Shown here piece by piece: positions 1 through 8,994 of a DNA stretch of 8,994 bases. The stretch is taken from the IMG/VR virus record IMGVR_UViG_2698536505_000015. One strand, written 5' to 3'. This DNA is from a virus. Taxonomy: Duplodnaviria > Heunggongvirae > Uroviricota > Caudoviricetes. A model generated the notes under the pieces. It was not told the DNA's origin, ran no database searches, and saw only the letters and a program-made list of their open reading frames with translations. The translations under genes and the position numbers were made by a program. Every line of letters starts with the position of its first letter. Positions within the stretch are counted from its first letter, which is position 1.

Positions 1-50
1 GGCGAATGCTGTTTACGGGGTTTTTTACTGGTTGATACTGTTTTTGTCAT
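1..50 (-). CDS. Partial CDS, N-terminus only (MTKTVSTSKKPRKQHS...), continues beyond the window start; function unknown
   Basis: ATG at 50..48 preceded by GAGGTGA Shine-Dalgarno 5 nt upstream; frame open to the window edge; starts 46 nt downstream of the stop of the 275-aa gene on the same strand. Confidence 0.4.
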   Translation of the reverse strand, partial: MTKTVSTSKKPRKQHS

Positions 51-96
51 GTGAGTCACCTCTGACTGAGAGTTTACTCACTTAGCCGCGTGTCCA

Positions 97-924
97 CTAT
101 TGCTGGGTAAGATCAACCTGATGGTGAATGCGTTTATGGCTGGCACCCATCAGTGAGATTTTTACGCACGACGGCGCATACATGACGGAGTAAAAACTTT
201 TAACGTAGGTTCCGGAATCCAGATACAGCTCGGTCATTCCGCCGCTGTTTTTCTGCGTCTGTTTCTGCCCTAACTGGACAGCACCGATCGTCATAAACAA
301 TTCACCACAGCGACCGAGATTCGTGTACGTATTCACATCCTCGTTAATGCGCCCCATGAATGAGAACGGTCGATCAACCGAACAGATAAAGCTGTTCATT
401 GCCTTGCGTTTCACCCACGAAGCATGGCCGCCATTGTCACCAAGAAAATCCCCGCCCTGCGACATAGCGATGGAAAGAGCAGGTATTGATTCGTAGTACG
501 CCAGCATTTCAGAAAGGATCGCATCCAGTTTCCTTATCGGAAAATAGGCCTGGTCATAGTTGCGATCCACCCGAAACTGGAACTCGTGATAATCATCATC
601 GAGCTGAATGAAGTATTTACACCCGACCAGTTTTGCCAGGTCGAAACAGGCATTACGGGCGTAAAAAATTGAGCGGCGGTCACAGAAATTATCGGCTTCG
701 TCAAAACGACTGGCGATATCGGCTTTGGAAAACACCAGCACCTGTTCACCAAATTCAGCCATGTACTGATTTCGTGTCTTATCTTCATCATCAACAACGA
801 TAAAAATTTTCCCGGTATAGCCAGCACGACGCAACGTCCGGTAAGTCAGAACTTTGTCCGGTCGCCCGTGAGTCAGAATAAAGGCGCAAAAATCATCACG
901 CATATTCCTCCTCCTCACCACCAT
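97..924 (-). CDS. Hypothetical phage protein (Rac ydaY-position); weak GT-A-like pattern (N-terminal beta-strand, IVVDDED and LDDD acidic motifs); function unknown
   Basis: 275-codon ORF; alternative start at 903 (Met8) has a GGAGG-type SD formed by the GAG GAG GAG codons at the 3' end of the upstream gene; overlaps the upstream ParB-like gene by 8-29 nt, suggesting translational coupling. Motifs read directly from the translation; fold assignment is inference. Confidence 0.6.
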   Translation of the reverse strand: MVVRRRNMRDDFCAFILTHGRPDKVLTYRTLRRAGYTGKIFIVVDDEDKTRNQYMAEFGEQVLVFSKADIASRFDEADNFCDRRSIFYARNACFDLAKLVGCKYFIQLDDDYHEFQFRVDRNYDQAYFPIRKLDAILSEMLAYYESIPALSIAMSQGGDFLGDNGGHASWVKRKAMNSFICSVDRPFSFMGRINEDVNTYTNLGRCGELFMTIGAVQLGQKQTQKNSGGMTELYLDSGTYVKSFYSVMYAPSCVKISLMGASHKRIHHQVDLTQQ

Positions 925-1687
925 GCATGATCTCCACCATGCGCTGCGTCATCCGGACAAATCCATTTTCAATAGCCTGCTGATAATCAATGATCACCAG
1001 CGCCGACTCCTCGAAAAAACACTGAATTTCAGAGGGGGCGTGAGCGTAATAGTCCGCAATTCTGCTGAAATTAAACACCGTGTGACGTTCTGCCGCACAC
1101 AGGAGGAATTTCTCAATATCAGGCTCAAGGGACGCCGAACGTATCCGGCTGATCAGCTCCTGAGTTTTCGTATCGTCGTACAGTTCACTGATATCCGGTT
1201 TACCGCCCGACGGCTCATAAACAGGCGTATCAATTTTCGTCGTATACGGCTCCTCCTCATTTCCTGTACCGGGCAAAACATCCGTCAACAGTTCATCAAT
1301 TTCTGTCGGGATGAAGCCTGTCAGGGAGACATCAAAATCAGCATTGATTAGGTCCGACAGCTCCATCCGCAACAGATCTTCATCCCAGCCAGCATTCATC
1401 GGCAGGCGATTATCTGCCAGGCGGTACGCCTTTTTCTGCTCATCCGTCAGGCCAGACAGAACAATGACCGGAACAGAATCCATTTTGAGCATTTCAGCCG
1501 CCATAACACGACCGTGACCCGCAATAATTTCGCCCTTTTCGTCAATCAGCACCGGATTAGTCCAGCCGAATTGCTTAATACTTTCTACCAGTTGTGCCAC
1601 CTGCTCAGGGCTGTGCGTCCTGGCGTTGTGCGCATACGGTGACAATTCTTGTAATGGGCGATAGACTATCTTTAATTTCTCGCTCAT
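896..1687 (-). CDS. ynaK: ParB-like nuclease-domain (ParB N-terminal domain) protein with uncharacterized C-terminal half and acidic tail; full-length counterpart of Rac YnaK
   Basis: 263-aa ORF; N-terminal ~100 aa (..PLQELSPYAHNARTHSPEQVAQLVESIKQFGWTNPVLIDEKGEIIAGHGRVMAA..) matches the ParB/Srx-fold pattern and, from memory, the N-terminus of E. coli K-12 YnaK; lies next to trkG as in Rac. Confidence 0.75.
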   Translation of the reverse strand: MSEKLKIVYRPLQELSPYAHNARTHSPEQVAQLVESIKQFGWTNPVLIDEKGEIIAGHGRVMAAEMLKMDSVPVIVLSGLTDEQKKAYRLADNRLPMNAGWDEDLLRMELSDLINADFDVSLTGFIPTEIDELLTDVLPGTGNEEEPYTTKIDTPVYEPSGGKPDISELYDDTKTQELISRIRSASLEPDIEKFLLCAAERHTVFNFSRIADYYAHAPSEIQCFFEESALVIIDYQQAIENGFVRMTQRMVEIMHGGEEEEYA

Positions 1688-1700
1688 ACAGCCTTGCTTT

Positions 1701-1738
1701 ATGAATAAAACGCACCCCAGCAGCCAGTGCTACTGGGG
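1701..1738 (-). terminator. Rho-independent terminator downstream of trkG (minus-strand sense)
   Basis: Inverted repeat ccccagcagc (1715-1724) / gctactgggg (1729-1738) with 4-nt loop, one G-U wobble; followed on the minus strand by UGCGUUUUAUUCAU (complement of 1701-1714). Ends 13 nt before the ynaK-like start codon. Confidence 0.5.
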
Positions 1739-1824
1739 ACGGAGGGGTTGCTGGTAAAGTTAGGTATTGGATCAATGAGTGAGTCAACATAATATTAAAC
1801 TCACAATTATAAATCAGCCATATA

Positions 1825-3282
1825 TTAGGAGCGCCAAAAAAAACCTGAAAACAATATAATAACAGGATAAATTTCAAGGCGACCAAGAATCATAGCTATG
1901 CACATTAAACATTTTGCAATGTCATTAAGCACTCCGAATGACGATGCAGTAGCCCCAAAACCTAATCCCATATTATTAATACATGCAGCCACTGTTGCAA
2001 ATGATGTAAGAAAATCATATCCCATACCATTTAACACCAGTATAAAAAACACCGTGAAGAGAGTATAAAGAAAAAAGAAACTCCATACAGACCTCATTAC
2101 ACGATCTGTAACTATCTTCCCTCCTACATTTACACTCAACAACGCTCTGGGATGAGAAAGCTGATTTATCTCGTGTTTGCTTTGTTTGAAAAGTATAAGA
2201 AATCGAAGTGACTTAATTCCACCACAAGTTGAACCTATACATCCCCCAAAGAAACTTGACAACAGCAAAAACACTATCGTGTGCGTGGGCCAACTTGCAT
2301 AATCCTGCGTAGCTAAACCATTATCAGTGAGCATGGAGCTGGCAAGAAAAAACGAATGAATAAAACTTCCATGCAAGTCATACATACCTATATGCCAGAC
2401 CTGGAAAGAGGTAACAATGATCACCCCTAAGGCTATTAACAGAAAGAAACGAAGTTCAATATCTCTGATTAAAGGTTTTATCGTTTTCCTGCTAATAACA
2501 ATATACCAAAGAGTGAAGTTGAAAGCCGATAGCAGGGAAAAAGAACCAGCCACCAGCTCAACCAAATAGTTATTAAAATATCCGATACTCTCGCTATGAG
2601 TTGAGAAACCACCAAGCGAAACTGTGGAAATCCCGTGACAAATAGCATCAAACAAAGGCATTCCTGCAAGTCTATAACAGACAATACAAGCAATACCTAA
2701 TAAAGAATAAGTTATCCACAGTGTCCGTGACGTATCGGCCAGGCGGGGAGTGAGTTTGTCATCCTTAAATGGCCCCGGCATTTCTGACTGATAAAGCTTT
2801 GCACCACCAATACCCAATAATGGCAATACAGCAACCGCCAGAACAATAACTCCTAAACCACCTATAAAATTTAACTGTGACCGATAGTACAAATATGCCC
2901 GAGGTAATGAACTAACATCATCAATTACAGTTGCTCCTGTTGTTGTTATTCCAGAAACCCCTTCAAACAGAGCATCAATGAACGTTAAATTAAGTTCTGA
3001 GTCAATCCATAAAGGGAATGCACTAATAACAGAAAACAAAATCCAAAACATTACAATTATAATAAACCCATCACGGGTACGTAATTGAATGCCAGATTTC
3101 TTAGTTGTATACCACGCTCCGCCACCAATGCAAAAAAATATAACGAAAGTTATAAAGAAAACGAACAGGATTTTTTCTTTATAAAACAATGCTACAACCA
3201 TTGGTGGCAACATTGAAAGACTATAGAGCCAAACCAGGAACCCACACATATGAGTAACAACTCTTACATGAGATGTATTCAT
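1825..3282 (-). CDS. trkG: TrkH/TrkG-family potassium uptake membrane protein (Rac-type trkG moron)
   Basis: Polytopic membrane protein, 485 aa from the ATG at 3282 (the ORF-track start at 3300 is a TTG extension); repeated pore-loop-like glycine motifs (SGITTTGATV, GGFSTHSESIGY, GGCIGSTCGGIK); strong resemblance to E. coli TrkG/TrkH from memory; gene and upstream region visibly more AT-rich than flanking phage genes. Confidence 0.9.
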   Translation of the reverse strand: MNTSHVRVVTHMCGFLVWLYSLSMLPPMVVALFYKEKILFVFFITFVIFFCIGGGAWYTTKKSGIQLRTRDGFIIIVMFWILFSVISAFPLWIDSELNLTFIDALFEGVSGITTTGATVIDDVSSLPRAYLYYRSQLNFIGGLGVIVLAVAVLPLLGIGGAKLYQSEMPGPFKDDKLTPRLADTSRTLWITYSLLGIACIVCYRLAGMPLFDAICHGISTVSLGGFSTHSESIGYFNNYLVELVAGSFSLLSAFNFTLWYIVISRKTIKPLIRDIELRFFLLIALGVIIVTSFQVWHIGMYDLHGSFIHSFFLASSMLTDNGLATQDYASWPTHTIVFLLLSSFFGGCIGSTCGGIKSLRFLILFKQSKHEINQLSHPRALLSVNVGGKIVTDRVMRSVWSFFFLYTLFTVFFILVLNGMGYDFLTSFATVAACINNMGLGFGATASSFGVLNDIAKCLMCIAMILGRLEIYPVIILFSGFFWRS

Positions 3283-3419
3283 ATCTAAATATTCTTTCAA
3301 TTATAACCACCTTGCTGCAATATTATGATTATACTGTATAAAATTTAACTCCTCTTAGATCTTACTTCACTGTTCCTTATGAAACAATCATCAAAATGAA
3401 TCATATTGTAGTTAAGATT

Positions 3420-3884
3420 TTACTTTAAACACTGCTCGGTTATGTATTGCTGAGCACCTTCAAGTTGGGCCTGCATCATTACCAGTCGTTCCCGGAGGGT
3501 GAAATAATCCCGTTCAGCGGTGTCTGCCAGTCGGGGGGAGGCTGCATTATCCACGCCGGAGGCGGTGGTGGCTTCACGCACTGACTGACAGACTGCTTTG
3601 ATGTGCAACCGACGACGACCAGCGGCAACATCATCACGCAGAACATCATTTTCAGCTTTCGCATCAGCTAACTCCTTCGTGTATTTTGCATCGAGCGCAG
3701 CAACATCACGCTGACGCATCTGCATGTCAGTAATTGCCGCGTTCGCCAGCTTCAGTTCTCTGGCATTTTTGTCGCGCTGTTCTTTGTAGGCGATGGCGTT
3801 ATCACGGTAATGATTAACACCCCATGACAGGCAGACGACGATGCAGATAACCAGAGCGGAGATAATCGCGGTTACTCTGTTCAT
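3420..3884 (-). CDS. Rz: Rz i-spanin (inner-membrane spanin)
   Basis: N-terminal TM segment ([18 protein letters not shown]) plus coiled-coil-rich periplasmic domain; near-identical to lambda Rz from memory. Start taken as the ATG at 3884, which overlaps the R stop (ATGA); the ORF-track GTG at 3896 is a probable extension. Confidence 0.85.
3479..3664 (-). CDS. Rz1: Rz1 o-spanin (outer-membrane lipoprotein), embedded in the +1 frame of Rz
   Basis: 61-aa ORF wholly inside Rz; lipobox LVVVGC; proline-rich mature part ([15 protein letters not shown]); matches lambda Rz1 from memory. Confidence 0.85.
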
Positions 3885-4378
3885 TGCTGACCCCACAAAC
3901 AGATTTCACGCTCAATCTCACGACGAGTCATGAGACCTTTCCATTGCTTACCGCCAGCATATGTCCAGCGACGTAGCTGATCACATGCGCCTTTGATATC
4001 GCCCTGGTTTATTTTGCGAAGAAGCGTCGATGTTCTGAAATTGCCAGCACCCACGTTGTAAACGAATGAGTAAAGAGCGCCGCGCGTTGTTTCCGGTATA
4101 TCGACTTTGATGTACGGGTTAATTTGTCTGGCGACCGTGGCAAGGTCTTTATTCAGGAGGGCTTTGCATTCTGCTTTGGTATACGTTTTACCGAGCATGA
4201 TGTCTTTTCCTGTATGCCCGTGACATACAGTCCATACACCAACAATATCTTTGTATGGTATGTAGCTGACACCTTCCAGACCATCGTTACCACTTGGGCC
4301 AGTGATTAACACTGATGCTATAGCAATTGCTCCGCCACCAATAGCAGCAGCAACGACTTTTCGTAATGATGGAGGCAT
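3881..4378 (-). CDS. R: SAR endolysin (phage-21 R-type lysozyme with N-terminal signal-anchor-release domain)
   Basis: N-terminal Gly/Ala-rich weakly hydrophobic segment ([20 protein letters not shown]) followed by a T4-lysozyme-like Glu...Asp...Thr region ([16 protein letters not shown]); start overlaps the holin stop (TAATG). Confidence 0.9.
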
Positions 4379-4593
4379 TATTCACCTCTCGCAGCCTTGC
4401 GCTTATCTTCTTTAATCTTGAAATAAAGGTTTGTCAGGTACGTCAGCAGGCCAAATACCAGACTACCCAGCACACCGATTGCAGCCCACTGTGACGGAGT
4501 TACTCTATCGAGCAACTGTAAAAACCAGTAGCCAGCACTGCCTGCGGAGGTGCCGTAGGCAATGCCTGTTGAAATTTTGTCCATGGATTTCAT
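4378..4593 (-). CDS. S: Class II holin / pinholin (phage-21 S-type) with dual-start motif
   Basis: Two TM segments; begins MKSMDK (Met1 and Met4 dual start, antiholin/holin); strong SD GGAGGTGA upstream of the ATG at 4593; matches S21/EssD from memory. The ORF-track extension to 4650 lacks an RBS and is not supported. Confidence 0.85.
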
Positions 4594-4691
4594 AGCCTCA
4601 CCTCCGCACGGAACGGATGGCATAGTTATTATGTGTAGGCTTTCAGACACATCAATCAGAGCCTTAATTGATATATATGCTGGAGACGATG

Positions 4692-4719
4692 CAATATAAA
4701 AAGCTCGCCGTAGCGAGCT
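4692..4719 (-). terminator. Rho-independent terminator ending the lipoprotein moron (minus-strand sense)
   Basis: Perfect 7-bp inverted repeat agctcgc (4702-4708) / gcgagct (4713-4719), 4-nt loop, followed on the minus strand by UUUUAUAUU (complement of 4692-4701). Confidence 0.5.
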
Positions 4720-4844
4720 AATAAAATGTATTTCTCTGATATTATGTTTATTTGTATTAGCTCAGACTTGACATCACAGGTTTCGTATATAGAACATCAT
4801 CAAATCTGTCAGTTTGCTATGAATGAGATATAGTAATTGAAGAG

Positions 4845-5240
4845 CTAACCTCGCATGTCAAAGCCAGATTTCTGAAAATCTCTGTAGACTTCCGGATTGT
4901 TGAAGGCCGGAAATTTGGCTTTATGAGCTGCGGACTTTATCGCTTCGCAATAGGCTTTATCACCGTTACTGGTAGATATTTTTAACGCCGTGCCATCCTG
5001 AGAGAATTCCATATGCAACCTGCATTTTTTCCCTTTCCAGTTATGCGGCTCATCAAGTTTGGCATTAATTGCAGCTCTGATTCCCCGCGCTTGCGCCCCC
5101 CATTCATCCTGATCATCCCAGCGTCCTGAACTGCAACTACCTGTAGCAGTAGTTTTGTGGCAATCTGAAGGGTGTAAAGGTGTGCATCCCGCAACAAAAC
5201 CGACCCAAAAAGTCAACATAACGATTTTCTTTAATCCCAC
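4845..5240 (-). CDS. Lipoprotein with TolA C-terminal domain (domain III)-like mature region, paralog 2
   Basis: GTG start with GAGGAG SD 7 nt upstream; signal peptide with lipobox FVAGC; mature part shares GK.C.L...DG.L.I...GD..C.A...AA..AK.P....VY..F pattern, including a Cys pair, with paralog 1 and with E. coli TolA domain III as recalled. Confidence 0.7.
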   Translation of the reverse strand: MGLKKIVMLTFWVGFVAGCTPLHPSDCHKTTATGSCSSGRWDDQDEWGAQARGIRAAINAKLDEPHNWKGKKCRLHMEFSQDGTALKISTSNGDKAYCEAIKSAAHKAKFPAFNNPEVYRDFQKSGFDMRG

Positions 5241-5390
5241 TTCTTGCTCCTCAATCCATTAAAATCTCAGCAATAGTAGTTGTTACGTCCGCCACTGGCT
5301 CAGAGCTGACTATCCGCTAAATTTAGCTCAGTGCCGTAGCTGTGTCAGAACAAACCTAAGCCGAAACCGTTTATTACAAAACAATAAATA

Positions 5391-5819
5391 TCAGGGTTTA
5401 AAATCCAGCACCCCATTTTGAAATACTTTATATACTTCCGGCGAAGGGGGGGCAGGTATATCAGCATTCTTTATCGCATTCATCGCTTCACGACATAAAT
5501 CGAGGTCTCCACTTTCTCTTTTAACCTCCAGTAGAAGGCCATTCGGGGCCATATGCATTCTCAGTGTACACTCTTTTCCTGAATACTTACTCGCATCCCC
5601 GAACTGTTTTTCGATGGCGCTCTTGATTTGATGGGCATACAGACGGATATCCTCACTAACATCAGAAGTACGTTCAGATGAACTCACATACTGTGTCTCT
5701 ATTGCTTTATCGGAGTAATATGATGTACGGTCATGATAATTTGTCGATACAGCATCAGTGCACCCGATAATAATCCCACTAATAATCAACGTAAGAATTG
5801 ATGCGCTACGAAAACCCAT
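5391..5819 (-). CDS. Lipoprotein with TolA C-terminal domain (domain III)-like mature region, paralog 1
   Basis: ATG with GAGGA SD; signal peptide with lipobox IIGC; C-terminal 85 aa (YAHQIKSAIEKQFGDASKYSGKECTLRMHMAPNGLLLEVKRESGDLDLCREAMNAIKNADIPAPPSPEVYKVFQNGVLDFKP) aligns closely with the C-terminus of E. coli TolA as recalled. Confidence 0.8.
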   Translation of the reverse strand: MGFRSASILTLIISGIIIGCTDAVSTNYHDRTSYYSDKAIETQYVSSSERTSDVSEDIRLYAHQIKSAIEKQFGDASKYSGKECTLRMHMAPNGLLLEVKRESGDLDLCREAMNAIKNADIPAPPSPEVYKVFQNGVLDFKP

Positions 5820-5848
5820 TTTTCCTCACATATGTCATATAGTAAAGG

Positions 5849-5878
5849 ATTATATATACCGTTGTTTTGGACGCTCAA
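5849..5878 (-). promoter_or_regulatory. Candidate sigma70 promoter for the lipoprotein moron
   Basis: Minus-strand -35 TTGAGC (5873-5878), 18-bp spacer, -10 TATAAT (5849-5854), about 30 nt upstream of the ATG at 5819. Consensus matching by eye only. Confidence 0.3.
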
Positions 5879-6407
5879 ACAGCGAATCAGATCAAATAAA
5901 ACGCACATTTGTTAACATTTACACAAAGTCTGCGTGGGATATTCTGAAAGAATATCCATAATGTGGAGAGAATCTATTGAAGTGCATGGTGCCGGGTGCC
6001 TCCCGGTGAACAAAATGTTCGTGATACCTGTCGGCGACAGAAAAGGTTAATGGTATCACCCCACCGCACAGGGGGATTCACCATGCAGGAGTTTTCTTAG
6101 CAAACTCACTGCGCGCCCGGCAACTCCCAACCACATAAAATGCGGAGTTTGTGGTATTTATGCATATAACTCGCAGGAATTATCTTAAAAAACTGATGTC
6201 GATCCGGATTAAAAAGAAGCAGGTCATCATCAGATGACTGGAAAAAAGGAAAACAAAAAATACTCATCATACAGTTTTGATTGCAGGGATGAGCCTGCTA
6301 TGCACAATATGCAGAATATAAGCAAGATAAAAATATGCAGGCATATTATTTCGGATTTTGTTATTAACACAACCTTTTTAATAATCATTTGGCATACAAT
6401 AAACCAG

Positions 6408-6436
6408 CCCAAAAAGAACCGCCTAAACAGGCGGTT
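6408..6436 (-). terminator. Rho-independent terminator (minus-strand sense) in the late leader region
   Basis: Inverted repeat aaccgcc (6417-6423) / ggcggtt (6430-6436) with 6-nt loop, followed on the minus strand by CUUUUU (complement of 6411-6416). Confidence 0.45.
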
Positions 6437-6680
6437 GGTCAATACAAAGGATGCTTCGTCTTTATTATAGTAATCTGAGGCGTCGGGTGTCTTGTATCAG
6501 ACAACATATTGTCCCGCTAAACAGCGAATTACAAACCACCCTGCAATGATCTCTCATCTCATTTTATATGAGTTGACGACATCAGGATAACGCATCATCA
6601 GCCCCTGCCAAGAAATATCAAAACTCCCGCCAGCAATGTGTTATCACAATATTGTAAAAAAAACACAGCACCGAAACTAT

Positions 6681-6719
6681 AACTGGTCTCTGTTATAATT
6701 TGGAGCAGAAAGACCAGTT
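6681..6719. repeat. Perfect 9-bp inverted repeat AACTGGTCT ... AGACCAGTT separated by 21 bp, bracketing an extended -10 element
   Basis: Arms at 6681-6689 and 6711-6719 read directly; the spacer contains TGTTATAAT. Confidence 0.5.
6691..6699 (+). promoter_or_regulatory. Candidate extended -10 promoter (TGnTATAAT) on the plus strand, directed toward the bidirectional terminator
   Basis: TGTTATAAT at 6691-6699; no good -35; a transcript from here would end at the terminator at 6757-6783 (about 75-85 nt). Confidence 0.3.
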
Positions 6720-6756
6720 GCCCAACTAGCAGCATTCTCCCCTGCTTTCCTGACGT

Positions 6757-6783
6757 AAAAAAACCGCATTAAGCGGTTTTTTT
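6757..6783. terminator. Bidirectional rho-independent terminator (candidate tR'-like late terminator in minus sense)
   Basis: aaaaaaaCCGCattaaGCGGttttttt: GC stem flanked by an A7 tract upstream and a T7 tract downstream, so a stem plus U-tract forms in both orientations. Confidence 0.6.
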
Positions 6784-6838
6784 ACGATGTCCATGTCTGC
6801 AATCCGCCTCGCGATACAGCTTTGCGAAGCATAGCAAA

Positions 6839-6867
6839 ATTGAAGCAGTTTATACGTAAGAAATCAA
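6839..6867 (-). promoter_or_regulatory. Candidate late promoter (pR'-like) directly downstream of the Q-position gene
   Basis: Minus-strand -35 TTGATT (6862-6867, overlapping the Q stop codon), 17-bp spacer, -10 TTCAAT (6839-6844); placement analogous to lambda pR' after Q; predicted short transcript ends at the 6757-6783 terminator. Confidence 0.3.
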
Positions 6868-7406
6868 GCCATTTTCTCAGCAAATGATTCACGCATGGGA
6901 ATATATAGGGCATACTCAGCAACAGCTAACCAATTAGCAATCCGTTTTTCGCATGTGCTAAAACACCACTCTGGGTGTGCATCATTTAGCAATTCAGCCA
7001 TTTTGCGCTTAGTCATCCCCCGCCCTTCATAGCGTTGCCGGAGAATGCAAATCAATCCTGGATGCTCTGCCAGCACCTCACTTATGACTCGATCAATACA
7101 TAACGCCTCTGCATCAGTACAATGCGCCAGCCAGCTCTTTTGCTTGCCGTTGATCATCTCTCGCAAAAACGCTTCCAGCTCAGCTTTCTCTATTCCCGCT
7201 TTTTTCATTCTGCGCAGGGCTTCATTAATGGCTGTTTTCGTCAGTTTTTTGGATGCCAACAACTGATTGAACATATTCCCTGACCTGCCACCGCCAATAT
7301 ACGACCAGCGCCCCCACATACGTAGTTTTCCCTGAATCCAGACACTTTCCAGCGTGGTGAGGCGAAGGTGTTCTCCGCTTTTTCCTGTATTCGTTGGGTA
7401 AATCAT
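6864..7406 (-). CDS. Putative late-gene antiterminator (Q-position protein)
   Basis: 180-aa ORF immediately upstream of the candidate late promoter/terminator and lysis genes; start overlaps the stop of the upstream gene (ATGA). Family assignment rests mainly on position. Confidence 0.5.
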   Translation of the reverse strand: MIYPTNTGKSGEHLRLTTLESVWIQGKLRMWGRWSYIGGGRSGNMFNQLLASKKLTKTAINEALRRMKKAGIEKAELEAFLREMINGKQKSWLAHCTDAEALCIDRVISEVLAEHPGLICILRQRYEGRGMTKRKMAELLNDAHPEWCFSTCEKRIANWLAVAEYALYIPMRESFAEKMA

Positions 7407-7693
7407 AAATGACCTTTCTTTCTCCAGATTTCTTGTGTGCGAAAAACCCCTTCAGCATGCATCAGGCGCAATTCTTCTTTGGTGTAATCGCTGGTTTTTA
7501 CCCGCCCGTCGATTAGATCGTGGCATGAGCTACAGGCTATCGCCGCCTGCATATCGTGTGGTTTTGTCGCTGTTCCGCACGTCCCCGCCAGCCTGTAATG
7601 CGCCAGCACAGAGGTTTCGGGATTGTGATTGCAGTAGCCAGGGATTCTGATCTGGCACATCTGGCCTTTAGCCGCTTTACGTAAATTCACCAT
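7403..7693 (-). CDS. ybcO: YbcO-like DUF1364 zinc-binding protein (putative nuclease of lambdoid nin regions)
   Basis: 96 aa; four-Cys pattern (CQIRIPGYC ... CSSCHD); N-terminal MVNLRKAAKGQMCQIRIPGYCNHNPETSVLAH matches E. coli DLP12 YbcO as recalled; start overlaps the upstream stop (TAATG). Confidence 0.7.
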   Translation of the reverse strand: MVNLRKAAKGQMCQIRIPGYCNHNPETSVLAHYRLAGTCGTATKPHDMQAAIACSSCHDLIDGRVKTSDYTKEELRLMHAEGVFRTQEIWRKKGHL

Positions 7694-8292
7694 TACGCAA
7701 ACTCCAGTAGTTGTGCGGCCACATTTTCAACTTCCTCCTGAGAGGAGAATTTACGGAACAGAATCCAGTTCCACAGCACATTCAGTACAGATTTATAAAC
7801 CTGCTGAAACTCGACTTCGTCCACATTCGCAAAAGCGATGGATTTTGCCCGACGCCCACGGCTACCGTCCGGATAAATATGCTCGGTGTAAAATCCGGCC
7901 TGAATGGTTACCCACTCGCGGAAAGCCTCAAACGACTTTAGCAACGCCGTATCCCGGGTTCTACGAGTCGCAACGGTGTTAAGGTATTGCTCTGCGGCAT
8001 CACTCAGGGCTGGCGTGTGTTCCCGACCAACTGATTCGCACAGGTAATCAACGAAACCAGACAGCAGTTCTCGTTCGCGAGGCGTGATCGCCCCACCGAC
8101 CGGAGTCCAGTAATCGAATCCCAGTTGCAGGAGTTTGAAAAAACGCTTGTGGAATGCGTAGTTACGCACACGCTTAAAGTCTGCGTGTATCCACTCACCT
8201 ATTTTGATTTGATGCAGAAAATCGCAACTCTCCGGCGTCGCCGGGAGAAGTAAACCAGAAGAAGTTTGTTTGACCAGTTGTATATGCGCCAT
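7693..8292 (-). CDS. DUF1367-like nin-region phage protein (YbcN-position)
   Basis: 199-aa ORF, first of three translationally coupled genes; family assignment from memory of lambdoid nin-region proteins, not verified. Confidence 0.5.
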   Translation of the reverse strand: MAHIQLVKQTSSGLLLPATPESCDFLHQIKIGEWIHADFKRVRNYAFHKRFFKLLQLGFDYWTPVGGAITPRERELLSGFVDYLCESVGREHTPALSDAAEQYLNTVATRRTRDTALLKSFEAFREWVTIQAGFYTEHIYPDGSRGRRAKSIAFANVDEVEFQQVYKSVLNVLWNWILFRKFSSQEEVENVAAQLLEFA

Positions 8293-8350
8293 TTCTCAAT
8301 CTCTCGATGGCGCAGTGCAGCAGATGCCAGTTGTTCAGGCTGACGTATAA

Positions 8351-8378
8351 AGTATAAATAAACTGGTTCCAGTGTAAA
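8351..8378 (-). promoter_or_regulatory. Candidate sigma70 promoter upstream of the DUF1367-DUF1364-Q gene trio
   Basis: Minus-strand -35 TTTACA (8373-8378), 16-bp spacer, -10 TATACT (8351-8356), about 55 nt upstream of the ATG at 8292. Confidence 0.3.
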
Positions 8379-8565
8379 GCCCCCACCTTAATGGAATAAA
8401 AACCAAACAACAGATTGCTGGGATACAAACAACGCTTATTATTAAAAGCGGTTAAACAAATTAAATTTTAATGTTATGCAAATTTGTCAGATCACCATAA
8501 TATCTCATTTGAAAACCGCTGAAATAACAATCCTATCAGGATTAATCATATTAAGGTGAGTAAAT

Positions 8566-8652
8566 ATGGAAAACAACAAATCTGCACATTACGCTCCTTT
8601 TTTATCTGTAATACTTTTTGTTTTTTGCTGTGTATGGGCATTATTTTTATAA
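8566..8652 (+). CDS. Small hydrophobic protein, 28 aa (MENNKSAHYAPFLSVILFVFCCVWALFL); candidate small membrane protein or type-I-toxin-like peptide
   Basis: ATG preceded by AAGGTGAG Shine-Dalgarno at 6-nt spacing; short polar N-terminus followed by a single predicted TM helix; the only plus-strand ORF with a strong RBS; below the length cutoff of the supplied ORF track. Confidence 0.35.
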   Translation: MENNKSAHYAPFLSVILFVFCCVWALFL

Positions 8653-8729
8653 AAATATTCACAGATAAAATAAACTCGCCGAATCAGGTTAAGTGTGGGT
8701 GCGTTGAGGATGCCTGACACATCAGAGGC

Positions 8730-8751
8730 GGCGAGGGATTTCTCCCTCGCC
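8730..8751 (-). other. GC-rich hairpin 10 nt after the hok stop codon (3' UTR stem-loop)
   Basis: Perfect 9-bp inverted repeat ggcgaggga (8730-8738) / tccctcgcc (8743-8751) with 4-nt loop; no U-tract follows on either strand, so it looks like an RNA stability or folding element rather than a canonical terminator. Confidence 0.4.
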
Positions 8752-8760
8752 TAGTCACTC

Positions 8761-8916
8761 TTACTCCTCAGGTTCGTAAGCTGTGAAGACAGCGACCTCC
8801 GTCTGACCGGTTCGGATTCGCACCTCGCAGAGGTCTTTCCTCGTTACCAGTGCCGTCACTATGACGGTTAAACAGATGACAATCAGTGCGACTAACATCG
8901 CCTTTTGCTGCTTCAT
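8761..8916 (-). CDS. hok: Hok/Gef-family type I toxin (HokD/RelF-like)
   Basis: Hand translation gives MKQQKAMLVALIVICLTVIVTALVTRKDLCEVRIRTGQTEVAVFTAYEPEE (51 aa), the Hok/Gef pattern with TM helix and conserved C..C; AGGAGAA SD upstream; below the ORF-track cutoff. Confidence 0.85.
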   Translation of the reverse strand: MKQQKAMLVALIVICLTVIVTALVTRKDLCEVRIRTGQTEVAVFTAYEPEE

Positions 8917-8931
8917 AGCCTGCTTCTCCTG

Positions 8932-8994
8932 TCAACGCAAAGCAGAAGTGTCACCTTCGGTGCGAAACAGAGATGTCATGCTTTGGTTCAGAGA
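8932..8994 (-). CDS. 3' end of an ORF entering from beyond the window end, in frame with hok; stops 15 nt before the hok start codon
   Basis: Frame open from the window edge to TGA at 8934..8932 (...SLNQSMTSLFRTEGDTSALR*); could be the last codons of an upstream operon gene or a leader ORF. Too short to classify. Confidence 0.25.
   Translation of the reverse strand, partial: SLNQSMTSLFRTEGDTSALR

Follow-up and report, generated by a model that had tools for sequence, protein, structure and literature searches.

The stretch of viral DNA analysed here (the window; 8,994 nt of the Caudoviricetes record IMGVR_UViG_2698536505_000015 in IMG/VR) ends in a toxin gene of the Hok/Gef family, hokD, whose present setting was very probably created when a transposon carrying the toxin-antitoxin genes relB and relE entered a hok/sok locus of the hokW type, generating the gene order relB-relE-hokD. 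In the proposed sequence of events an element of ∼3.3 kb, with a DDE transposase of the IS1202 family at its left end and relBE directed outwards at its right end, would insert into the region spanning the Shine-Dalgarno sequence (SD) and the ATG of hok, duplicating 15-16 bp. The right-hand copy of the duplication would restore to hokD its own SD and start codon, and the hok promoter, tac, ucb, the start of mok, the Sok target and the sok gene would be stranded 3.3 kb away, beyond the transposon. It is because the element inserted at its SD-ATG region that hokD would lack the classical controls. Related copies occupy the same point in at least ten different hok-family loci on plasmids, phages and chromosomes, and in hok loci at large the transposon family seems to home to precisely this position; such homing would make relBE-hok fusions recurrent rather than the product of a one-off rearrangement.

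Results

hokD lies downstream of relB and relE in identical genomes

The open reading frame (ORF) in question, which encodes MKQQKAMLVALIVICLTVIVTALVTRKDLCEVRIRTGQTEVAVFTAYEPEE, is intact, starts with ATG and is preceded by a good SD (AGGAG, 8930-8926, 9 nt 5′ of the ATG), in agreement with the initial annotation, which had called it a Hok/Gef-like gene of 51 codons. The protein matches HOK_GEF (PF01848) over positions 1-42 of the 42-position profile with E = 7.2e-24 and 83.6 bits (cut-off 22); its matches to the NCBIfam Hok models fall below the cut-offs of those models. By direct reading, residues 7-24 form a hydrophobic transmembrane segment (MLVALIVICLTVIVTALV) that is followed by a polar C-terminal part, in which Cys30, within ...KDLCEVR..., aligns with the HokC, HokW, R1-type and PndA-type proteins. 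The protein is identical to K-12 HokD at 50 of 51 residues, the genes differing by I9V and four synonymous changes, and an identical protein, WP_000813269.1, is named HokD by the NCBI annotation pipeline (PGAP). Judged by its sequence, the ORF is hokD (relF), a Hok/Gef inner-membrane toxin and an already-known gene of the relBEF operon. It is a textbook gene, known since the 1980s.

At least 13 complete Escherichia coli chromosomes, each annotated with relE and hokD, match the last 695 nt of the window at 100% identity. E. coli chromosomes also match the window over its whole length at 100%. In BLAST, positions 1-8879 of the window aligned in one piece, at 100.0% identity, to an 8,880-nt stretch of one of these genomes (L001, NZ_AP021893), which implies a single-base indel. 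In L001 the sequence beyond window position 8994 holds relE and relB immediately, then ydfV, flxA and ydfW, the same order as in the Qin prophage of K-12; relE occupies L001 8720-9007, and the window, read in the direction of hokD, begins at L001 9001. The RelB and RelE proteins, which are encoded outside the window, pass the NCBIfam models. The 78 nt 5′ of the hokD ATG, which include the 71-nt relE-hokD spacer, are identical to K-12 MG1655. The proposal that hokD is the distal gene of an operon like the relB-relE-hokD of Qin is thus borne out: the stop codon of relE lies within the window, and all of the 100%-identical genomes listed carry relE, relB, ydfV and flxA just past position 8994. 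A scan of the relE-hokD spacer on both strands revealed no promoter-like or terminator-like sites. In K-12, probes for relB, relE and relF detect one transcript, and deletion of PrelBEF abolishes its induction (PMC3598666).

Among the matches listed, three E. coli strains (ECZP248, S171-1 and EC20-72C-1) carry an IS1 inside the region equal to window 8300-8930, beside a copy of hokD without relE.

The 5′ half of the hok/sok locus lies 3.3 kb away from hokD

Homology to canonical loci (933W hokW/mokW/sokW, Rac-SA53 hok/mok and the locus of strain ECCHD184) begins exactly 14 nt 5′ of the hokD ATG. From this point the window is 92-96% identical to its phage and chromosomal hok relatives, and the hok allele of ECCHD184 is 100% identical. 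None of the canonical leaders shows homology to the 64 nt upstream of −14, the place where tac, ucb, the mok start and sok lie in canonical loci. A search with the Sok RNA model (RF01794), which covers the hok leader and scores 110-118 bits against the control loci hokC, hokB, hokW and ECCHD184, gave no match at E <= 1 in window 8300-8994 and none adjoining hokD in L001. The sole Rfam match in the search of 8300-8994 was a sub-threshold small nucleolar RNA (14 bits, E = 0.28), attributable to chance. Likewise, no antisense (sok-like) promoter-like site was found in a scan of the relE-hokD region, no overlapping mok frame couples into hok, and the end-pairing of tac with fbi is missing, as an fbi-like element is present and tac is detached.

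That hokD nevertheless belongs to a canonical hok/sok locus is almost certainly wrong. The hok ORF, the SD, the 3′ stem-loop and the fbi-like element are all of canonical hokW type, as this reading would have it, but the sequence upstream of −14 lacks leader homology, the relE stop codon lies inside the window, no sok match adjoins hokD even though all the controls were matched, and for the identical genomes the reading is refuted by what lies upstream.

The missing 5′ half is present 3.3 kb upstream in L001, where a full-length RF01794 match of 110 bits spans 5594-5765. This detached half (L001 5594-5838), which comprises the promoter region, tac, the mok start and sok, continues through ...AAGGCAAGGAGAAGCAGGCTAT and then breaks. 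It points into a transposase gene, and the truncated mok ends at a TAA inside the left terminal inverted repeat (IRL), ∼55 nt before the ATG of the transposase; it is possible that the hok promoter and Sok influence expression of the transposase. In E. coli strain ECCHD184 (L008 3846-4170) the corresponding chromosomal position is occupied by an uninterrupted canonical sok/mok/hok locus whose hok allele is identical, and for this reason the strain represents the empty site. PGAP names the hok gene of ECCHD184 ‘HokD' as well, so the annotation name alone does not mark the relBE-linked form.

The intervening DNA is a transposon with relBE at its right end

In L001 the insert is 3300 bp in length and has the order IRL-transposase-flxA-ydfV-relB-relE-IRR, where IRR is the right terminal inverted repeat; flxA and ydfV lie on the other strand, and relB-relE run outwards to the right end. 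The insert is flanked by an exact 16-nt direct repeat, AGGAGAAGCAGGCTAT, at L001 5749-5764 and 9065-9080, which occurs as a single copy in ECCHD184. IRL (TGTTAACACCAAGCTGTAATGTCCCCTT), which opens TGTTAACACC, is complementary to IRR at 21 of 28 positions. The two repeats share no 7-nt exact seed and were found by direct end-to-end comparison; no other reverse-complement match within the 18.7-kb locus is as good (binomial P = 4e-8). The transposase ORF (L001 5839-7179, 446 amino acids) matches the NCBIfam ISNCY model NF033594 with 466 bits (cut-off 250), contains helix-turn-helix (HTH) and rve_3 domains, and is named by PGAP as ‘IS1202-like element ISEsa1 family'. PGAP splits this uninterrupted ORF into a ‘partial transposase' and ‘ydfW', and K-12 ydfW (b1567) corresponds to the last 49 codons of the transposase.

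Related elements occupy the same point in other hok loci

Sixteen plasmids, from Salmonella, Enterobacter and E. coli, carry the complete 3300-bp unit at 99.0-99.8% identity. Three insertions illustrate how the duplicated sequence follows the target. In the E. coli chromosome L001 the target is of hokW type, the duplication is AGGAGAAGCAGGCTAT and the gene that follows encodes HokD. On an IncI plasmid of Salmonella (L012) the target is of pndA type, the duplication is ATGGAGGGGCTATGAT and a PndA-like Hok follows. On an IncF plasmid of Enterobacter (L013) the target is of R1-hok type, the duplication is AGGAGAAGAAGGCCA(T), the R1 type being AGGAGAAGAAGGCCAT, and an R1-like Hok follows.

Both ends of the element were surveyed more widely. 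For the left end one genome per species was scanned, yielding 16 loci, 15 of them with a left flank; IRL abuts a hok leader in 11 of the 15, 16 nt (17 in L020) past a conserved ...AAGGCA/ATGCA motif. The right-end survey covered 152 junctions with 26 distinct right flanks. Of these flanks 19 derive from hok, and 14 hold an intact ORF of the Hok family, with at least four sequence types represented. In viral and metagenome contigs relE lies directly upstream of IRR at 125 of 131 junctions. The 15-nt duplication matches in 49 of 57 cases, and the remainder are accounted for by register shifts of one base, a deletion and two recombinants with swapped flanks. In four loci (L061, L069, L144 and L146) a deletion next to the transposon has removed the 5′ half of hokD, so that the right end now joins the gene midway.

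The units range widely in size (2.3, 2.6, 3.3, 4.5-4.7, 6.1, 7.7 and 12.8 kb), and the transposase end and the relBE end are common to all. The largest, an element of 12,843 bp on plasmid pC309-p2 of Enterobacter hormaechei (L183 140-12982), carries the nickel and chromate resistance genes ncrYCBA and chrBA between the transposase and relBE; within a hok-like leader it is flanked by a perfect duplication of 16 bp, AGGAAATGTATGGGTC. Three further loci (L014, L015 and L017) group with this metal-resistance version. A whole element of 3273 bp, with an apparently split transposase, also lies inside a hok/sok locus of the phage genome PhiR42_1 (L009, from ECOR13; 2792-6065), between the replication genes and rem/ydfU/Q. 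Its presence in this genome means that the transposon can travel with phage genomes.

Since each locus carries duplications derived from its own target, repeated transposition accounts for this distribution better than the spread of one event by homologous recombination. A single ancient insertion that then moved between hok loci is very improbable. Such loci are numerous and similar enough to recombine, and the two flank-swapped recombinants (L108 and L181) are what this process would leave, but the local sequence duplicated on both sides of the element differs (pndA, R1 and hokW types and AGGAAATGTATGGGTC), and recombination outside the 15 bp would not yield such differences. Furthermore, the targets extend down to 37-43% protein identity, and elements of differing size and cargo share the same junction geometry.

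The open frame upstream of hokD is part of the transposon arm

The sequence co-phased with hokD is open from 8994 to the TGA that lies 15 nt 5′ of the hokD ATG, and reads SLNQSMTSLFRTEGDTSALR*QEKQAM. The initial annotation had described this frame correctly, but had also taken its co-phasing with hok as a non-classical feature. This second point does not stand, because in the hokW/hokC subgroup mok is normally co-phased with hok and shares its stop codon, forming a 19-codon N-terminal extension (mokC/hokC of K-12 and mokW/hokW of 933W). The frame is not the end of relE, which terminates in another frame (...CTC TGA, 8993-8988), nor is it a decayed mok, as homology to mok leaders ends at −14 and the sequence here belongs to the right arm of the transposon. 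This arm is identical wherever the element sits, and the TGA of the frame falls within the terminal inverted repeat. The frame does not constitute a gene. From its first ATG it comprises 15 codons, for which direct reading of the sequence revealed no convincing SD; in principle it could pass ribosomes along to hokD.

Elements at the 3′ end of hokD

The perfect 9-bp GC hairpin that had been noted just past the stop codon is present. It lacks a U-tract and is not a terminator but the conserved 3′ stem-loop of hok mRNAs: in each of the eight hok loci that were compared, a GC-rich stem-loop follows the stop codon, and three of seven consensus pairs are kept through two-sided changes. In plasmid R1 the last 3′ stem-loop shields the processed hok mRNA from 3′-5′ exoRNases (PMC9841398). 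Beyond the stem-loop lies an orphan fbi-like element, which is complementary to the 5′ tac element (GCGGGTGCTTGAGG) of intact relatives; tac is not on the relBE-hokD transcript. In the predicted thermodynamic fold of the RNA from the window, the IRR end and the SD are paired to the orphan fbi, and the region of the AUG to the 3′ coding region, with a probability of ∼0.6. The fold of the whole transcript does not differ significantly from that of shuffled sequences (z = −1.32).

Further downstream, at the position of the terminator hairpin that follows hokD in K-12, the window has a degenerate counterpart that a terminator scan leaves unflagged. In view of the weakness of this hairpin, relBEF transcripts may read on towards the DUF1367, YbcO and DUF1133 genes. 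Within the coding sequence, the Tyr47 position of the hokC, hokD and hokE mRNAs is reported to undergo Tyr to Cys recoding through A-to-I editing by TadA (bioRxiv 10.1101/2025.08.07.668861). The features of the junction and of hokD are collected in Table 1.

Table 1. Features at the hokD end of the window, in order along the reading direction of hokD
Feature	Position	Strand	Details
relE, last 7 nt (T CTC TGA)	8988..8994	-	stop 8990-8988; translates to L*; K-12 alignment ends ...AAACGCATTCTCTGA
Right arm of transposon, relE-proximal 57 nt	8931..8987	-	most of the 71-nt relE-hokD spacer; 100% identical to K-12
Open frame of 15 codons, co-phased with hokD	8932..8979	-	ATG 8979 to TGA 8934-8932; starts 8 nt past the relE stop
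IRR of the ISEsa1-like relBE transposon, AAGGTGACACTTCTGCTTTGCGTTGACA	8930..8957	-	27-28/28 identical in L012, L013, L016, L018, L019, L028
Right target-site duplication, (A)GGAGAAGCAGGCTAT	8915..8929(30)	-	15-16 bp; holds the hokD SD and the first two bases of the ATG
hokD (relF) coding sequence	8761..8916	-	51 amino acids, Hok/Gef family; TAA stop 8763-8761
CTTACGAA motif with Tyr47 codon (TAC, 8778-8776)	8773..8780	-	conserved in the hok-locus alignment
hok-mRNA 3′ stem-loop, 9-bp stem and GAAA loop	8730..8751	-	GGCGAGGGA-GAAA-TCCCTCGCC; predicted dG -19.6 kcal/mol; starts 9 nt past TAA; no U-tract
Orphan fbi-like element, GCATCCTCAACGCACCC	8697..8713	-	conserved with 933W hokW and the ECCHD184 locus
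Degenerate counterpart of the K-12 post-hokD terminator hairpin	8664..8696	-	window AACCTGATTCGGCGAGTTTATTTTATC, -5.4 kcal/mol; K-12 AACCCGCTTCGGCGGGTTTTTGTTTTT, -11.8 kcal/mol

The host prophage and other features of the window

The host prophage is a defective lambdoid prophage of E. coli, of the Qin/Rac type, and not apparently intact as the initial annotation had assumed. In the matching genomes it is a remnant in which Rz, the tolA-like gene and ynaK are pseudogenes, trkG is present, and chromosomal genes directly adjoin the hok side; the annotation of L001 shows no integrase (int), repressor (cI) or replication (O, P) genes on this side. The associated idea that HokD serves the maintenance of an intact prophage, or abortive infection, is improbable. 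The relBE-hok arrangement does occur in a deposited 48.7-kb phage genome (PhiR42_1), but the matching genomes carry only the remnant, and without Sok, hokD itself has no unstable antidote.

Two other features of the window lie outside the hokD transcript. A full-length match to the STnc100 small RNA family (RF02076; 86.6 bits, E = 5e-18) occupies positions 5930-6116 on the minus strand, with the DUF1133 gene on one side and the tolA-like fragments of the prophage on the other, and is present in L001 and L008 also. A very hydrophobic ORF of 28 amino acids (MENNKSAHYAPFLSVILFVFCCVWALFL; 8567-8653, plus strand), preceded by TAAGGTGAG, lies convergent to hokD within the AT-rich gap that precedes the DUF1367 gene; the matching genomes have no annotation for it.

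Discussion

Expression and fate of hokD

With the classical controls stranded beyond the transposon, hokD would be transcribed only by read-through from the relB promoter, which is autoregulated by RelB/RelE, as shown in K-12 with an identical junction. As judged from this arrangement Sok cannot control hokD. Translation of hokD is inferred to be normally poor, because coupling to mok has been lost and the SD and AUG are predicted to pair with 3′ elements. The toxin would then appear only upon strong derepression or processing of the relBEF mRNA.

hokD is said to have been described by Pedersen and Gerdes in 1999 as inactivated by a major rearrangement. A locus inactivated in this manner, in which hokD is an inert relic that looks intact, is never translated and is drifting to loss, is unlikely but carries appreciable weight. 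It would fit the absence of all elements for mok-coupled translation and activation, the predicted pairing of the SD and AUG, and the deletions next to IRR by which four loci have lost the 5′ half of hokD. Against it, the hokD ORF is intact at 108 of the 152 junctions surveyed, its differences from K-12 comprise one non-synonymous and four synonymous changes, and it has kept its own SD and ATG. In addition, the relF portion is the most accumulated part of the K-12 relBEF mRNA after cleavage (PMC3598666), and the K-12 HokD coding sequence is toxic upon expression (bioRxiv 10.1101/2025.08.07.668861).

Several observations weigh against the insertion of a relBE transposon as the origin of the locus, or against the wider picture of homing to hok. 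The window itself holds just the last 7 nt of relE, so that the presence of relBE in the source genome is deduced from identical genomes, and the expression evidence would apply to the K-12 allele rather than to the I9V allele. The predicted sequestration of the SD is weak evidence because the fold as a whole is no more stable than shuffled sequences. Not all copies conform to the hok target: in the left-end survey one copy at a hok site is inverted (L027) and two or three lie elsewhere, and non-hok flanks occur in L015, L016 and L022 and in seven singleton right flanks. The left and right flanks of L108 and L181 come from different hok loci, which points to recombination between element copies. 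Transposition of the unit as a whole is suggested by comparative structure only. Finally, ISEsa1 is given as a 1609-bp insertion sequence (IS) with no detectable duplication (Harmer & Hall, PMC10132070); if the mobile unit reaches to the relBE end, the missing duplication would be explained.

Significance

The gene, the operon and the truncation of an ancestral mok/hok frame by integration of relBE are already published. No description of the transposon boundaries, the duplication, the relBE end module or the targeting of hok was found in the searchable literature; subscription papers were outside reach, and a prior description is possible. The wider proposal is that relBE is the fixed outward end module of IS1202-type (ISEsa1-like) transposons of 2.3-12.8 kb, some with nickel and chromate resistance, which home to the SD-ATG regions of hok/sok loci, and that each insertion cuts hok from mok and Sok and builds relB-relE-hok. 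The structural evidence for the proposal, which comes from comparison of loci, is strong. That the proposal is both correct and undescribed is held tentatively, at slightly less than an even chance.

If the proposal is true, relBEF and ‘ydfW' of K-12 are the truncated remains of one such insertion. The relBE locus of E. coli is the paradigm of type II toxin-antitoxin systems, and a junction that consists of a transposon end and a target duplication would provide a concrete mechanism both for the mobility of a type II module and for the loss of antisense control by hokD. The data also mark the hok/sok loci of conjugative plasmids as insertion sites for metal-resistance cargo. Two annotations are corrected, ydfW being a transposase fragment and the PGAP split falling within an intact ORF. 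hokD needs no more attention as a new toxin; its worth lies in the transposon context.

Comparison with known systems

The closest known systems include relBEF of the cryptic Qin prophage in K-12, which shares the order flxA, ydfV, relB, relE, hokD and the identical spacer. The K-12 system differs in having Ile9 where the hokD of the window has Val9, in its stronger downstream terminator, and in the prophage genes that follow, which are rem/ydfU/ydfT in K-12 compared with DUF1367/YbcO/DUF1133 here. Whereas the matching genomes retain the complete transposon and the detached sok/mok half, K-12 retains element positions ∼1231-3300.

Among classical loci, hokW-sokW/mokW of 933W and Sakai Sp5 is 92-96% identical across the coding region, SD, 3′ stem-loop and fbi region, and in lambdoid genomes the phage hokW loci likewise sit upstream of the nin/Q region. 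hokW and the K-12 hokC (gef)-mokC-sokC locus own a promoter, tac, ucb, a co-phased mok and an antisense sok, none of which hokD has in cis. hok/sok (parB) of plasmid R1 encodes a toxin of the same family and has the same mRNA architecture in the retained 3′ two-thirds. Its control consists of tac/fbi end-pairing, mok-coupled translation and Sok-directed decay by RNase III (PMC9841398), of which relBE-hokD preserves the orphan fbi and the 3′ stem-loop only.

The IS1202 family contains subgroups with duplications of either 3-5 bp or 16-28 bp, and includes members that target dif, the ISAjo2 group (Harmer & Hall 2023, PMC10132070). The element described here has an ISEsa1-family transposase and imperfect terminal repeats, and its 15-16-bp duplication fits the 16-28-bp subgroup. 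In contrast to the 1609-bp ISEsa1, the duplicated units always end in relBE-IRR and carry variable cargo (flxA-ydfV or ncr/chr). Their fixed target and mostly fixed orientation recall the targeting of dif by ISAjo2, suggesting that the family has a second site-specific target, the translation-initiation regions of hok genes.

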